Origin: Camelus ferus
Taxonomy: Eukaryota
Direction: 5' to 3'
DNA: 64,000 nt
Assembly (NCBI RefSeq): GCF_009834535.1
Contig: NC_045696.1
Span: forward strand, 68,636,001 to 68,700,000
Position 1 is the stretch's first letter, and every line of letters begins with the position of its first letter. Positions 12,982 through 43,129 of the stretch are shown piece after piece. The notes below the pieces were generated by a model that saw nothing but the letters and a program-made list of their open reading frames with translations, did not search any database and was not told the DNA's origin. The translations under genes and the position numbers were made by a program.

Positions 12982-13536
12982 TTTTCTTTTTCTTTTCTTT
13001 TCTTCTTTTTTAACACTTTTTTTATTGCGTTATAGTCATTTTACAATGTTGTGTCAAATTCCAGTGCAGAGCACAATTTTTCAGTTATACATGAACATAC
13101 ATATATTCATTGTCACATTTTTTTTTTTTGCTGTGAGCTACCGTATATCCAAGATCTTGCATATATTTCCCTGTGCTATACAGTATAATCTTGTTTATCT
13201 ATTCTACATATGCTTGTCAGTATCTACAAATTTTGAACTCCCAGTCTATCCCTTCTTCCCCCATTCCCCTTGTCAACCACAAGTTTGTATTCTATATCTA
13301 TAAGTCTGTTTCTCTTTTGTATTTATGTTCTTTTTTTTTTTAAGATTCCACATATGAGTGATCTCATATGGTATTTTCCTTTCTCTTTCTGGCTTACTTC
13401 ACTTAGTGACATTCTCCAGGAACATCCATGTTGCTGCAAATGGCTTTATGTTGTCCTTTTTTATGGCTGAATAGTATTCCATTGTATAAATATACCACAT
13501 TTTCTTTATCCAGTCATCTGTTGATGGATATTTAGG
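12982..13536 (-). mobile_element. Young LINE-1, 3' non-inverted part (ORF2 end, 3'UTR, poly-A tail)
   Basis: T-rich tail at about 12982-13025; minus frame encodes [27 protein letters not shown] (L1 ORF2 C-terminus). Confidence 0.9.
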
Positions 13537-15089
13537 GATCCAAATTGGAAAAGAAGTAAAAGTGTCACTATATGCAGATGACATGTTACTATATATAGAA
13601 AACCCTAAAAGGTTCACACAAAAACTGCTAGAAATAATCAGAGAATTCAGCAAGGTAGCAGGTTACAAGATTAAGGTACAAAAATCAGTTGCATTTCTTT
13701 ACACTAACGATGAATCAACAGGAAAACAAAGTAAAGAAACAATCCCCTTTAAAATAGCACCCAAAGTAATAAAATACCTAGGAATAAATTTAACCAAGGA
13801 GGTGAAAGACTTATACACAGAGAACTATAAAACATTGATTAAGGAAATTAAAGAAGACTTTAAAAAAAAATGGAAAGATATCCCATGCTCCTGGATTGGA
13901 AGAATCAATATTGTTAAAATGGTCATACTGCCCAAGGAAATCTACAGATTTAATGCAATCCCTATCAAATTATCCAGGACATATTTCACAGAACTAGAAC
14001 AAATCATGATAAAATTTATATGGAACCACAAAAGACCTAGAATTGCGAAAACATTACTGAAGAAAAAGAAAGAGGCTGTAGGAATAACTCTCCAAGACTT
14101 GAGACAATACTGTAGAGCTACAGTCATCAAGACAGCCTGGTATTGGTACAAAAACAGACATATAGGCCAATGGAACAGAATAGAGAGCCCAGAAATGAAC
14201 CCACAAACTTTTGGTCAACTAATCTTCAACAAAGGAGGCAAGAATATACAGTAGAATAAAGACAGTCTCTTCAGCAAATGGTGTTGGGAAAACTGGACAG
14301 CAGCATGTAAAGCAATGAAGCTAGAACACTCCCTTACACCATACACAAAAATAAACTCCAAATGGATCAAAGACTTAAACATAAAACAAGATACAATAAA
14401 CCTCCTAGAAGAAAATATAGGCAAAACATTATCTCACATTCATCTCAGAAATGTTCTCCTAGGGCAGTCTACCCAAGCAATAGAAATAAAAGCAAGAATA
14501 AACAAATGGGATGTAATTAAACTTACAAGCTTCTGCACAGCAAAGGAAATCATAAGTAAAACAAAATGACAACCTACGGAATGGGAGAAAATTTTTGCAA
14601 ATGGTGAAACCGACAAAGGCTTGATCTCCAGAATATATAAGCAGCTCATATGACTTAATAAGAAAGAAACAAACAACCCAATCCAAAAATGGGCAGGAGA
14701 CCTAAACAAGCAATTCTCCGAGGAAGAAATACAAATGATCAATAGGCACATGAAAAAATGCTTAATATCACTGATTATCAGAGAAATGCAAATCAAAACT
14801 ACGATGAGGTATAACCTCACACCAGCCAGAGTGGCCATCATTCAAAAGTCCACAAATGACAAATGCTGGAGAGGCTGTGGAGAAGAGGGGACCCTCCTAC
14901 ACTGCTGGTGGGAATGCAGTTTGGTGCAGCCACTGTGGAAAACAGTGTGGAGATTCCTCAAAAGACTAGGAATAGACTTACCATATGACCCAGTAATCCT
15001 GCTCCTGAGCATATATCCAGAAGTGTCAAAAAGACACTTGCACCCCAATGTTCATAGCAGCACTATTTACAATAGCCAAGACATGGAAA
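13534..15089 (+). mobile_element. Same LINE-1 insertion, inverted 5' segment (ORF2 RT to C-terminal region, disrupted)
   Basis: ORFs 13562-14254 ([17 protein letters not shown] motif), 14315-14569 and 14735-15118 (LLHCWWEC) are L1 ORF2 pieces separated by stops/frameshifts. Confidence 0.92.
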
Positions 15090-15127
15090 AAGTTAAAATG
15101 TTCACATATTTGTTTTGATGAGTCAGG

Positions 15128-37648: not shown

Positions 37649-39296
37649 TTATAAGTATCTGGATACAAGAAAGGTAAACAGAGCAACAACACAGACATAG
37701 CCCAATCTGAACAACTGCTCTTGGCCAAGGGAATCATTTGGTAGCCTTGAGGGAGAGACTCTGCAAATGCTGTCTGAAGCAGCCCCTCTGGGTGAGCACC
37801 CCTCCTGCCTGCCCCAGGCAGCTTGGGTTCCGCTGTAGGTCCCAGGCCCACATTTGTGGCCTGCCTTCAGTGTCTGCTGTGAGTTTGACCCTGGTGTTGG
37901 GGTGCCTGCCCTCCCTGTAGCCTGAGTGCCTGATGCTGCTGTGGCCTTTGGGATTGCCCCCTGTGTGGGCTGTGAGTTTGACCCTGGTGTTGGGGTGCCT
38001 GCCCTCCCTGTAGCCTGAGTGCCTGATGCTGCTGTGGCCTTTGGGATTGCCCCCTGTGTGGGCTGTGAGTTTGACCCTGGTGTTGGGGTGCCTGCCCTCC
38101 CTGTAGCCTGACTGCCTAACCCTGCTGTGGCCTTTGGGATTGCCCCCTGTGTGGGCTGTGAGTTTGACCCTGGTGTTGGGGTGCCTGCCCTCCCTGTAAC
38201 CTGAGTGCCTGACGCTGCTGTGGCCTTTGGGATTGCCCCCTGTGTGTGCTGTGGGTTTGACCCTGGTGTTGGGGTGCCTGCCCTCCCTGTAACCTGAGTG
38301 CCTGACGCTGCTGTGGCCTTTGGGATTGCCCCCTGTGTGTGCTGTGGGTTTGACCCTGGTGTTGGGGTGCCTGCCTTCCCTGTAGCCTGAGTGTCTGATC
38401 CTGATGTGGCCCTTGGGATTGTCCCCTTCGTGGGCTGTGGGTGTGTCACCCTTGTGGCCTGAAGACCTGCCCCTTGTGTGGCTTGTTCCTCCTGTGCCGA
38501 CTGTTGGCTTTTCATCCTTACAGCCTGAGAATATGTCTTCCATGGGGCCTTTGGTCCTGTCCCCAGTGTGGACTGTGAATGTCCCCACCCTGCAGGTAGT
38601 GGGCCTCCTTCTTGTATGGGCTGTGGGTCTGTCCACTCTGAGGGAAGTAATCTTGCTACTCGAATGGACTGGGGGCCTGTTCCCCGTGTGGCTTGCCGGT
38701 CTGCCCCTGGTGTGAGCAGTTGGCCTGTGTCCCCTTTGGGCTGAGGATCTGCCCCAGGCACTTGGGTCCTTGCAGCAGCATGGCTAGGCCTTGAGCCCTT
38801 ATGAGCACAGGAATACCCACTCCCCTGAGTCTCCTTTGCCTCTGCTGACTGGTTCCTGGGTAGGTTTTGGCCACACACATCACCAATGCAATCAGAGGAA
38901 CTCCTAATCTCCATGTGGGATAGAGGGGATTTGGATGGCTCTGTCATGCAGTTTTGTAAGTTCTTCATACAGAAGCCCAGGGTGCATGCCTCACAATTGG
39001 CTGTGTCATGGGACCCATCCAAAGGCACCTCCAGTTTCACTGGTATCTCTGAAACCTTGACGCCATTTCTGTAGAATTTTTCTAGAATATGCTGTACCAG
39101 GTTGTTCAGAATCCTCTGGGTGCTATCCAGGGAGAACTCAGGCTTCTCAAATTGAGACCGGGAACACTTCCGGCACCTCTGAGCAAAAGTCCTCATAAGC
39201 ACCTGCCCCTGGGACTTCCGGGGCTCCAATTTCATGTGACATAGAATCTGCACTTGGGCAGAAGCCCACCTTCGTTGGCATGAGGAACACTGGAAC
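37649..39296 (-). CDS. RTP4: RTP4 coding exon 2: 3CxxC zinc finger, extended low-complexity/tandem-repeat region and C-terminal hydrophobic tail
   Basis: Acceptor cttcttccttctgtttgcag|G at 39297/39296 continues the frame as RFQCSSCQRRWASAQVQILCH...QRCRKC...GSHDTANCEAC (three CxxC plus His, RTP4-like). The frame stays open to TAA at 37649-37651 and ends in LGYVCVVALFTFLVSRYL. Exons 182+1648 nt = 610 codons. Confidence 0.95.
37876..38441 (-). repeat. Coding tandem repeat, 6 x 93 nt (31 aa), inside RTP4 exon 2
   Basis: Anchor tttgaccctggtgttggggtgcctgcc recurs at 37884, 37977, 38070, 38163, 38256 and 38349 (period 93). Protein unit (P/S)Q(H/P)TQGAIPKATAASGTQ(V/A)TGRAGTPTPGSN. Confidence 0.97.
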
Positions 39297-40436
39297 CTGC
39301 AAACAGAAGGAAGAAGATTATTGTTCCCTCAACTGATTGTTGACCTGAGGGAAATGGGCCAGGCTTCAGTCTCTAAGAACCCTTTCAATTTGAGAAAGTG
39401 CATGTGATAATTGACAATTGGACAAGAATGAGAGGGATTGCATTTCTAATCAAGCTTTTTCCTGTGACCCACTGAACTTCCACCCATATGTGGCCCCATG
39501 TCTACTTCTTTGCCAGTAAAACATCTCTGCATGTCTTAGAGAGAAAAACATTTCTGTCATTTTTCCAGTGAAATTTGGTCTTCACAAGGTCATAGAAAAC
39601 TCTTATAAAGTACCCATTTTGAGGCAAGCACTGCACTTGGTGCTTTACAGTGTTGCCCCATTTCATCTTTAAAGCACCCCCTGAGGTTGGCATTATTGAG
39701 CCCAATATCCACATAAGGAAACTGAGTCATAAATGATATACAACTTGCCTAAGGACACACAAAGTAAGTAGAGCCATATTTCCAATCCCAAAGCCATTTG
39801 AAACCAACCTGGTTTTATCTACCTACTATAGCACATAACCTCTATTGAAGAACATGGCTAGTTTTGCACCTGACTTGGGACCTGAAGCCATAAACCCAAG
39901 TCCATAGTTTACATCAGGAGGAACTTTGGGAAAAGCACTTCCCTTCTCTAAGCCTCAATTTTTACATCCATAAAAAGAAAAATATTCAAGTGTTATACTG
40001 TCCACATTAAATGAGATATTATAAGTGAAAACATTTTGTAAACTACAAAGTGCTTTTCAAAAGCTGGTCAATAGTTTTCTAAAACTTTGCTGGTAGGTTG
40101 CTTTTTCTTCATTTCAGAATGACTGTCAGGTCAATTTATCTGAACAAGAGAAGCACCTTCCCATTTTGGGGAGTGCATAACTGATAAAAGATATCATGAG
40201 TCCCTCAAAGAGCGCTGGCTGGTGCGGAGAGAGACTCTTACCCAGTTCACTGGGTTCCAGGCATAACAAAATGACTGCTATGCAGGCTCTGGTGAATGGC
40301 TTGAAAACTGTGTTCTGCAGGACCCCAGGAGACTTCATGTAAACAATGGGTTCCACAGCAAAAAACAATTATATATAAATATATATTTTCTATGATATGT
40401 AATATATGAATATATGTTATTTATAAATGTACTATA

Positions 40437-41339
40437 TGGAGAAAAGACAGCCTCTTCAGCAAGTGGTGTTGGGATAACTGGTCAGCTACATGTAACTCAA
40501 TGAAGTTAGATCCCTCCCTCACACCACACACAAAAATAAACTCAAAATGGCTTATAGAGTTAAATATAAGACACTAAAAACCTCCTAGAAGAAAACATAG
40601 GCAAAACATTCTCTGACAGAAATCTTAGCAATGTTCTCCTAGGACAGTCTATCAAGGCAATAGAAATAAAAGCAAAAAAACCCAAATGGGACCTAATTAA
40701 ACTTACAAGCTTTTGCACAGCAAAGCAAGCTATAAATAAAATGAAAACCAACCTACAGAATGGGAGAAAATGTTTGCAAATGAGGCAACTGACAAGGGCT
40801 TAATTTCCAGAACATACAAACAGATCATACAACTCAATAACAAGTAAGTAAATAAATAAATAACCCAATCAAAAAATGGGCAGAAGATCTAAACAAACAT
40901 TTCTCCAATGAAGACATACAAATGCCCAATAGGTATGTGAAAAAACAGTCAATATCATTAATTATCAGAGAAATGGGAATCAAAATTACCATGAGGTATC
41001 ACCTCACATCAGCCAGAGTGGCCATCATTAGAAAGTCCACAAACAATAAATGCTGGAGAGGGTGTGGAGAAAAGGGAACCCTTCTACACCGTTGGGAATG
41101 TAGTTTGGTGCAGCCATTATGGAAAATAGTATGGAGATTCCTTTAAAAACTAAAAATAGACTTACCATATGATCATCAATCCTACTCCTAGACATATATC
41201 TCGAGGAAACTCTAATTTGAAAAAATACATGCACCCCAGTGTTCATAGCAGCACTGTTTACAATAGCCAAGACTTGGAAGCAACCTAAATGTCCATTGAC
41301 AGATGACTTGATAAAGAAGTTGTGGTATATATACATGTG

Positions 41340-41375
<36 letters not shown>

Positions 41376-41768
41376 ATGGAATACTATTCAGCCATAAAAA
41401 GAATAAAATAATGCCATTTACAGCAACATGGATAGACCTTGGAGATTGTCATACTAAGTGAAGTAAGCCAGAAAGATAAAGAAAAATACCATATGATATT
41501 ACTTATATATGGAATCTAAAAAAAAATGATACAAATGAACTCGTCTACAAAACAGAAACAGACTCACAGACATAGAAGACAAACTTATGGTTACCAGAGG
41601 GGAATGGGGAGTAGAGGGATAAATTGGGTGTTTGGGATTTGCAGATACTAACTACTATATATAAAATAGATGAACAACAAGGTCCTGCTGTATAGCACAG
41701 GGAACTATATTCAATACCTTGTAATGGCCTATAGTGAAAAAGAATTGAAAATGAATATATATATATGT

Positions 41769-41802
<34 letters not shown>

Positions 41803-41876
41803 ATCACTATGCTGTGTACCAGAAATTAACACAACCTTGTAAACTGACCATACTTCAATTTAAAAAAAAGAAAAAC
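40437..41876 (+). mobile_element. 5'-truncated LINE-1 in the RTP4 intron, antisense to the gene
   Basis: Closely similar to 14260-15089 (aaagacagcctcttcagcaagtggtgttggga...), followed by L1 3'UTR and an A-rich tail at about 41862-41876; (CA)n tracts at about 41343-41371 and 41771-41800. Confidence 0.9.
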
Positions 41877-41935
41877 ATTTTTAATAGCTACTAAAAATAA
41901 ATGAACAAATGTATTATAAATAAATGACAGAGATC

Positions 41936-41939
<4 letters not shown>

Positions 41940-41986
<47 letters not shown>
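41940..41986. repeat. Compound (TA)n(GA)n microsatellite in the RTP4 intron
   Basis: Directly visible. Confidence 0.9.
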
Positions 41987-41989
<3 letters not shown>

Positions 41990-42893
41990 AATTAACTTAT
42001 GGGACTGGAGAAGGAACACTTACTCTGCCTAGGGAGATCAGGACACTTGAGTTGGTCCTTGAGGGATGCGTAGGGAGGGAGGGAGGGAGATAAGGGCCTG
42101 CTGAACAGGCAGAACTTCATGGACAAGGGTACAGAAGTCTAAAAATGTATGGCATGGCTAATAATCCATAATGAATGGAACAGAGGGAGGCAGGTAACAG
42201 GTGAAGTGGAAAGTGAAGGTCCCTTTGTGCCATATAAAAAGAGAAGACTTGATTGTCCAGATGAGCAGTTCTCACCTTCCTGATATTGGCAAGGAAGCTG
42301 GCTCCTGCAGCTGGAGGCTTACTGGAAGTTAAAGAGGAAGATAGTCAATAAGGAAGGGGCACTACTTAGGGACTCCAAGAACTAGGTTTTAATTTCTTTC
42401 TTATAGCATCATTCCCTCCTGTTATCCTCAGGTCTTTGGTAAAGTGATGTTCAAAGCCATTGCTTGGCCTTAGTCAATTCTTGAGGCTTTAAAGGAAGGT
42501 CCCAGTCCTAGGCTGGTACTGAACAGGACTAGGGCTCAGAGGGCTGTGGCAGCCTGGGGAAGCCAGCAGGACTGATGAGGGAGACAGCAGAAGTCTGTAG
42601 ATAGAGGCAGTCTGCAACAAGTGAGGTGGTGAGAGAACAGGAGAACAGATTCATGGCATTCCCTAGGATTTCCAGAAATATTTAGGGAGGAAACCTAAAA
42701 AAGAAGAAACTTCCTGCTGTTAAGAAAAATGGAAGGTTAGAATCTTACCTTTTCCATCCTAAAGAAGTGTGATTACAAAAGGATGAAGAGCCTGGTGACA
42801 CTTATTCTTTTAACAAGCTCTGAAAAGAACTGATCAATGCTCAGCTGAGCCTCTTGGCCCAGAAAGGCCCATGGCGGACAGACTCTCACCTAC

Positions 42894-43075
42894 CTGCCAA
42901 ATCCTCTCTGCCGATATTGCTTCCACCCTGGGGCGATACAGTCTGGCTTCAGGTTCCCATCCAACTTCAGGGTCCATCTGGCCCAGGGTTTCTCCTGCCA
43001 GATCAGTTCTTGAAATATCTGCTCCCACGTCCTGACATCCAAAGCCATTGTCTTGCTCTGAGGCTTGGAGTCCAT
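42894..43075 (-). CDS. RTP4: RTP4 (receptor transporter protein 4, IFN-stimulated 3CxxC zinc-finger protein), coding exon 1
   Basis: Translates MDSKPQSKTMALDVRTWEQIFQELIWQEKPWARWTLKLDGNLKPDCIAPGWKQYRQRGFG(R), matching the RTP4 N-terminus (human TWEQTFQELIQEAKPRATWTLKLDGNL...GWKQYQQRAFGW). ATGs at 43075 and 43048 both have A at -3 and G at +4. Donor CAG|GTAGGT after 42894 is phase 2, compatible with exon 2. Confidence 0.93.
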
Positions 43076-43087
43076 GTTTATTGAGTA

Positions 43088-43100
43088 ACTTTCAGTTTCC
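43088..43100. promoter_or_regulatory. Second ISRE/IRF element
   Basis: ACTTTCAGTTTCC (reverse complement GGAAACTGAAAGT), 12 nt upstream of the first ATG. Confidence 0.75.
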
Positions 43101-43116
43101 AGCAAGAGGCAAAAAC

Positions 43117-43129
43117 AGTTTCGGTTTCC
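43117..43129. promoter_or_regulatory. ISRE (consensus)
   Basis: AGTTTCGGTTTCC matches AGTTTCNNTTTCY, about 42 nt upstream of the first RTP4 ATG. Confidence 0.85.

Follow-up and report, generated by a model that had tools for sequence, protein, structure and literature searches.

A 93-nucleotide coding repeat array in camel RTP4 is shared across hoofed mammals

Introduction

RTP4 orthologs restrict different viruses, according to the passages of a review that deal with Boys et al. 2020 (PMC12503246), and human RTP4, a protein of 247 amino acids (PMC10470548), is described in the available parts of these two sources as antiviral with only a short disordered variable region (DVR). The nearest precedent for length variation in this gene comes from cattle: in the excerpts of the HiFi pangenome of Dai et al. 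2023, RTP4 is named among the genes with a highly polymorphic variable number tandem repeat (VNTR), with a 93 bp coding bubble at chr1:79912495-79912588 (PMC10547261). The same excerpts cite Boys et al. 2020 for the RTP4 VNTR, and cattle and pig orthologs were part of the Boys panel as summarized in PMC12503246, so the 31-residue unit analyzed below may already be described there.

The coding VNTRs of MUC1, BDP1, ALMS1 and QRICH2, named beside RTP4 in the available text of PMC10547261, likewise consist of in-frame units whose number changes length in whole-unit steps, and they share with RTP4 a low-complexity sequence rich in S, T, P and G. RTP4 differs from these genes in its small copy numbers, which range from 1 to 9. 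In addition, with the topology of a tail-anchored protein the RTP4 array should face the cytosol and would thus not form a mucin-type glycosylated domain.

A preliminary description of the camel locus had proposed that RTP4 contains a coding VNTR. Head-to-tail, in-frame units whose number differs between genomes bear this out, but the idea is already in print for cattle (PMC10547261, as excerpted). The bovine system involves the same gene, and five cattle units homologous to the camel unit lie at the same place; in contrast, the inner camel units form a branch of their own, the polymorphism demonstrated by HiFi assemblies in cattle is only hinted at in camels, and the parts of PMC10547261 that we cite treat the cattle case in a single line and a table row, giving neither the unit sequence nor a map across species nor a function. 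Titles and abstracts yielded no paper on the camel array, the ungulate-wide series or the 24-nt substructure, although subscription journals and supplements may contain one; RTP4 repeat units are not mentioned in the available passages of PMC12431671, PMC8172065 and PMC10470548, and one supplement of the goat pangenome has no entry for RTP4. What is new here is a series of 1 to 9 units in ungulates, the 24-nt scaffold that preceded the unit, and a faint indication of alleles within camels.

Results and discussion

The RTP4 gene

In the 64,000-nucleotide stretch of Camelus ferus DNA analyzed here (the window), RTP4 comprises two coding exons on the minus strand, organized as follows:

43090..43128, minus strand: two ISRE-like GAAANNGAAA motifs shortly before the first RTP4 ATG (motif match)
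42894..43075, minus strand: exon 1, coding part, aa 1-61 (97% identity to dromedary RTP4)
39297..42893, minus strand: intron, GT..AG, with a pyrimidine-rich acceptor
37649..39296, minus strand: exon 2, coding part through the stop codon, aa 61-609
38978..39296, minus strand: 3CxxC zinc-finger domain, exon-2 part (Pfam PF13695)
37661..37717, minus strand: C-terminal membrane anchor, aa 588-606 (hydropathy and predicted helix)

The spliced protein has 609 residues and is identical to the RefSeq RTP4 record P0007, which is XP_006188933.2 in C. ferus and XP_010957530.2 in C. bactrianus, confirming the earlier naming of the gene. Orthology with RTP4 as opposed to its paralogue RTP3 is further indicated by the protein search, which is headed by named RTP4 records (693 bits, versus 207 for the first RTP3). 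The zinc finger, DVR, anchor, two coding exons and ISRE-like motifs all agree with the ZFD-DVR-TM organization of mammalian RTP4. The length does not: set against the 247 residues given for the human protein in PMC10470548 (seen in part), the camel protein is 2.47 times as long, matching the roughly 2.5-fold excess first noted.

PF13695 covers aa 58-167 (E 2.9e-27; 95.6 bits against a cut-off of 23), with CxxC motifs at aa 64, 102 and 162. Only the hydropathy windows beginning at aa 587-589 exceed 1.6, marking a single hydrophobic segment, and the AlphaFold model places a helix at aa 586-608 (pLDDT about 75). In the same model the fold is confident at the zinc finger and the anchor only, while pLDDT falls below 50 in 422 of the 609 residues, including almost all of aa 171-584; this suggests that the middle region is disordered, a low pLDDT being no proof of it. 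Within the array AlphaFold also draws short beta strands; their pLDDT is about 35-50, and they were not accepted as a fold.

A second in-frame ATG lies at 43048 in exon 1. The two upstream matches to the ISRE consensus begin at positions 43128 and 43099 (minus strand) and are positioned relative to the ATG only. RTP4 sequence was found in contigs of RNA libraries. The window holds 22 stop-to-stop frames of at least 110 aa; RTP4 and one piece similar to LINE-1 ORF2 were the sole ones recognizable by eye. Fragments resembling LINE-1 ORF2 lie at 13490-15118 (plus strand) and at about 40500-41600; the latter falls within the RTP4 intron and is accompanied there by CA/TG and CT microsatellites.

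Six in-frame units of 93 nucleotides

Tandem Repeats Finder reports a repeat at 37876-38439 with a period of 93, 6.1 copies, 95% matches, 0% indels and a score of 988, the highest among its 17 rows in the window. When cut in register, the array resolves in gene order into six units, A-B-B-C-D-D, all in frame within exon 2 and spanning aa 347-532 (186 residues):

38441..38812, minus strand: pre-array part of the predicted disordered variable region, aa 223-346 (a decayed 24-nt, 8-aa minisatellite, common to other laurasiatherians and the elephant)
38348..38440, minus strand: unit A, aa 347-377, a diverged first unit near the first units of other ungulates
38162..38347, minus strand: units B1 and B2, aa 378-439, identical; doubled in Bactrian and wild camel records only
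38069..38161, minus strand: unit C, aa 440-470, which carries AGLGS and is unchanged in dromedary
37883..38068, minus strand: units D1 and D2, aa 471-532, identical; the dromedary also has two D-type units

The arrangement and the lack of indels are thus as first described. B1 and B2 differ at 0 of 93 nt, as do D1 and D2; the remaining comparisons give 6 differences per 93 nt between B and C, 4 between B and D, 4 between C and D, and 9-11 between A and the others. Since 93 is a multiple of three, the reading frame and the tail anchor survive each change in unit number. The excess over human RTP4, put at about 350 residues in the preliminary description, comes to about 360; the array supplies 186 of them, about half, and the remainder is common to other laurasiatherians and the elephant in our alignments.

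A second open frame of 349 codons (37734-38783, minus strand) runs across both the array and the variable region; from its ATG at 38543, 269 aa extend to the stop. The RTP4 models of a beaked whale, the narwhal and one yak run partly in this second frame, and the beaked whale model lacks the anchor; these models are frameshifted alleles or annotation errors.

The array is common to hoofed mammals

We scored 67 hand-picked RTP4 records against camel units A and D. RTP3 proteins, most fragments, unnamed records, several near-duplicates and the apparently frameshifted models were left out, five camelid records were compared separately, and a search of 50%-identity representatives, which returned RTP-family proteins, did not enter the counts. 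The 31-residue unit was present in all 51 ungulate and whale records, in at least two copies in 49 of them, and the spacing between units was exactly 31 aa in 164 of 165 cases. For 21 of 29 ruminant records, protein length minus 31 times the number of units equals 410.

Unit counts, which were taken from annotated proteins, range from one in the pygmy sperm whale and two in rhinos and the peccary, through three in hippo, goat, donkey and zebra, mostly four in pig, horse and sheep, five in cattle and dromedary, and six in the Bactrian camel, reindeer and the newer yak record, to seven in red deer, eight in buffalo and the newer white-tailed deer record, and nine in wapiti. Older and newer records disagree for white-tailed deer (4 versus 8) and yak (5 versus 6), and some of the low counts are probably assembly collapses. 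Six other ungulate records have at least 609 aa, and the buffalo and deer proteins exceed that of the camel.

Among the 16 non-ungulate records, 13 gave no match and three (dog, jaguarundi and elephant) gave a borderline single unit scoring 58-59, against a cut-off of 55 and a shuffled maximum of 50; the dog and jaguarundi matches align at the place of the unit. The RTP4 array is therefore a common feature of hoofed mammals and is not camel-specific. Its portrayal as young and as peculiar to the camel lineage does not stand, because every group of hoofed mammals that we examined shows expansion of the unit and other ungulate proteins are as long. The array is shared with distant artiodactyls, but at a copy number that is not fixed.

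Two alignments bear on the history of the whole region. Elephant RTP4 aligns with the camel protein from end to end, pre-array region and anchor included (44% over 625 columns), whereas mouse lemur RTP4 (255 aa) aligns to about AEAKETQGSGY, where the preliminary description let the similarity to human RTP4 end, and then almost directly to the anchor. Since the region is present in the elephant but almost wholly missing from the mouse lemur, the placental tree makes the long form probably ancestral and the primate form shortened, as far as these alignments can tell.

Unit number and the age of the identical pairs in camelids

Unit number shifts by whole units among camelids, as had been expected. 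Both dromedary X1 records contain five units, A-B-C-D-D, with small changes, and the older Bactrian record has the same order; the Bactrian and wild camel proteins contain six, and alpaca RTP4 has four plus a part, with the B-type histidine present in its units. The 'isoform X2' records of camelids lack one further unit, which makes the wild camel X2 A-B-B-C-D.

The identical pairs had been taken to imply recent unequal crossover. They do not require a very recent one: the dromedary too has two D-type units, so D-D is probably as old as the Camelus split. Before the array the Bactrian and dromedary proteins differ at only 3 of 346 residues (26 for Bactrian versus alpaca), so that identical 31-residue neighbors can date to that split. 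Of the two pairs, the doubling of B alone is confined to Bactrian and wild camel records. Upstream of the array, in exon 1 (window 43075-42894), residue 31 is W in Bactrian and wild camel, next to invariant residues of the N-terminal domain, and R in dromedary, alpaca and 18 of 21 other alignment rows.

Support for six units and a hint of camel alleles

The sequencing runs, 24 in all, consist of contigs, so that no read spans the array; 20 of them contain this stretch, and four of these were analyzed. Two 31-mers only are diagnostic for the B-B junction, and zero separate one D from two. The B-B junction contig (38253-38284) is present in run X17, which is recorded as RNA, and in run X1 it can be reconstructed from the depth bins with a residual of 0.04; the B-B pair is therefore real outside the assembly. 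We also fitted alternative arrangements to the contig depths, assuming 150-nt reads, even coverage and no duplicates, a procedure in which contig depth is not a copy number. X3 and X17 are compatible with A-B-B-C-D-D (p 0.12 and 0.11, respectively), whereas A-B-B-C-D was rejected for both. For X1, which may be RNA or DNA, the relation was reversed (p 0.003 for A-B-B-C-D-D, 0.71 for A-B-B-C-D), in agreement with the wild camel X2 model, while X11, represented by two contigs only, matched neither (p 0.002 and 0.009). The six-unit arrangement thus fits two of the four camel runs by depth and fails in the other two. C-specific and some B-specific contigs are absent in X3, X11 and X17; the best fits without C that result for these runs were set aside, since graph cleaning and filters can explain the missing contigs.

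These depths bear on the suggestion that six units are an assembly error and that the true allele has five, as the older Bactrian model and the dromedary do. The D-D pair lies beyond confirmation by junction 31-mers, which leaves this explanation some room there. For B-B it is largely refuted by the 31-mers specific to that junction in X17 and X1; moreover, the identical 609-residue protein is recorded from two contigs, one of C. ferus and one of C. bactrianus, the X3 and X17 depths fit the full arrangement, and the two D-type units of the dromedary differ in sequence. Taken together, we regard an assembly error as highly improbable. We lean somewhat towards unit number being polymorphic within camels, for which the disagreement between contig depths offers a weak hint.

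Shorter camel proteins might alternatively arise by splicing, with an intron inside the exon removing one or two whole units from a single fixed allele. RefSeq 'isoforms' exactly 31 or 62 residues shorter are recorded for wild camel, Bactrian camel, dromedary, pig and red deer (P0008, P0011, P0012, P0103, P0124), and the X2 models of wild camel, of the older Bactrian and dromedary records and of pig are exactly 31 aa shorter. The array also contains 34 formal GT/GC..AG pairs spaced 93 or 186 nt apart, and X1, guessed to be RNA, fits A-B-B-C-D. Such pairs, however, are expected in any tandem repeat holding AG|GC; 30 of the 34 use GC donors, and by eye none has a pyrimidine tract. X17, an RNA run according to its record, agrees with the six-unit arrangement and rejects the shorter one, and the cattle 93-bp variant sits in DNA (PMC10547261, as excerpted). 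We consider splicing very unlikely. Reads from a shorter allele, or misplaced reads, yield the same short models, and the RefSeq 'isoforms' look like read-alignment artefacts or shorter alleles and not like the products of real introns.

Units that group by lineage on an older 24-nucleotide scaffold

A protein-level tree of 103 units from 22 proteins was built on 31 columns. The difference between inner units is 3.6 aa within a protein and 11.8 between lineages, and for 75 of the 81 non-first units the nearest neighbors all belong to the same lineage. All 12 camelid units other than first units fall on a single branch (97/98, a rough support in a bootstrap that had not settled), while first units, and the last units of ruminants, group by position. 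Lineage labels change 15 times on the tree, compared with a mean of 64.7 after shuffling, and none of 200 shuffles was as low. Likeness within lineages combined with distinct edge units is the pattern that concerted evolution by unequal exchange or slippage with protected edges would leave, and repeated fresh expansion would look just like an old homogenized array.

The 372 nt preceding the array show autocorrelation at lags 24, 48, 72 and 96 (z 5.1, 6.8, 5.7 and 3.9 against 1000 codon shuffles), with none of the others among the 33 lags above 1.0. As the 24-nt period recurs inside the 93-nt unit (z 4.1), the unit is a higher-order slice of an older 8-residue minisatellite.

Five columns of the unit (8, 9, 12, 19 and 30) are nearly invariant, being conserved in 97-102 of the 103 units. 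Net charge is not conserved: it is +2 per unit in the camel, whose units are basic and S/T-rich, -1 to 0 in the horse and 0 in three of four sheep units. The variable sites among B, C and D comprise six that change the amino acid and one that is silent; with 70% changing expected (binomial p about 0.33), these few sites seem compatible with neutrality and give no clear excess of amino-acid changes.

A probable tolerated spacer versus a possible tuner of antiviral activity

The probable reading, in our judgment, is that the camel array is a copy of a coding minisatellite found in the DVR of each hoofed mammal examined, a mutable, tolerated and flexible spacer. On this reading the DVR began long ago as a 24-nt repeat that has since decayed, and the unit is a 93-nt piece of it (about 24+24+24+21 nt). 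Misaligned recombination or slippage would then gain or lose whole units and homogenize the inner ones in each lineage, with the first unit, and in ruminants also the last, staying distinct. The units would act as a flexible cytosolic tether linking the RNA-binding zinc finger to the ER anchor, and widely differing lengths of it would be tolerated, activity being altered modestly at most.

If copy number is close to neutral, the array would provide a useful length marker and a warning that collapsed units and questionable 'isoforms' distort the RTP4 models of ungulates; the human protein would be an unusually short form. If copy number alters activity, ungulates would offer a natural 1-to-9 series for testing the role of the variable region; the series apparently segregates in cattle and perhaps in camels, and would then matter for livestock disease genetics.

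The second possibility corresponds to an adaptive accordion, in which unit number sets the reach of the zinc finger from the ER membrane towards the sites of viral replication, or the number of weak contacts between the tail and RNA or partners, and so tunes antiviral strength under selection. Several observations are in keeping with it, among them the different viruses restricted by different orthologs (PMC12503246, in the passages cited above), the 93-bp coding variant of cattle (excerpts of PMC10547261), the basic, S/T-rich camel units and the five nearly invariant unit columns. RNA binding and specificity reside in the zinc finger according to published work, and swaps between mouse and human RTP4 cut both ways: in the available part of PMC12431671, HCV restriction maps to the zinc finger and the DVR has an auxiliary effect. 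In the same passages mouse RTP4 carrying the human DVR falls short of full wild-type activity, and the DVR is therefore not inert. Human RTP4 without its anchor is still active against coronaviruses in the accessible text of PMC10470548, which undercuts an effect of tether length; human RTP4 is antiviral despite its short DVR, unit charge varies across ungulates, and the B, C and D sites show no excess of amino-acid changes. The literature passages searched describe no experiment that varies the unit number of an ungulate RTP4. On balance we judge such tuning by unit number under selection unlikely; the tuning of antiviral activity suggested in the preliminary description finds no support here, and the published swaps assign the DVR an auxiliary role only.

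Repeats with other periods in other lineages are a further point in favor of an accordion. RTP4 has a period of 16 aa in Rhinolophus sinicus, 23 in Saccopteryx, 24/48 in the elephant and 8 in cricetid rodents, and independent expansion with different periods may reflect selection for length beyond mutability. In the broadest version, an ancient 8-residue minisatellite would have been re-amplified as 31 aa in ungulates, 16 in horseshoe bats, 23 in sac-winged bats and 24/48 in elephants, would have been mostly lost in primates, and would segregate in camels as in cattle, setting zinc-finger reach or valency and thereby restriction strength. We find this version quite unlikely; if true, it would supply a tunable series of antiviral alleles in livestock.

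Expansions of other kinds were seen in passing. The array of cricetid rodents (P0061, P0065, P0067, P0069) is a tandem repeat of 8 aa, rich in S, P, H and K and unlike the ungulate unit. In RTP4 of Phyllostomus discolor (P0016, 518 aa) the beginning of the variable region seems to occur twice, an internal duplication that starts at about the SAGAKEAQGSG motif and is larger than a short-unit array. Rodent RTP3 proteins can be long as well (486-699 aa in P0070, P0073, P0085 and P0086), and expansion may, to judge from these lengths alone, extend to this paralogue.
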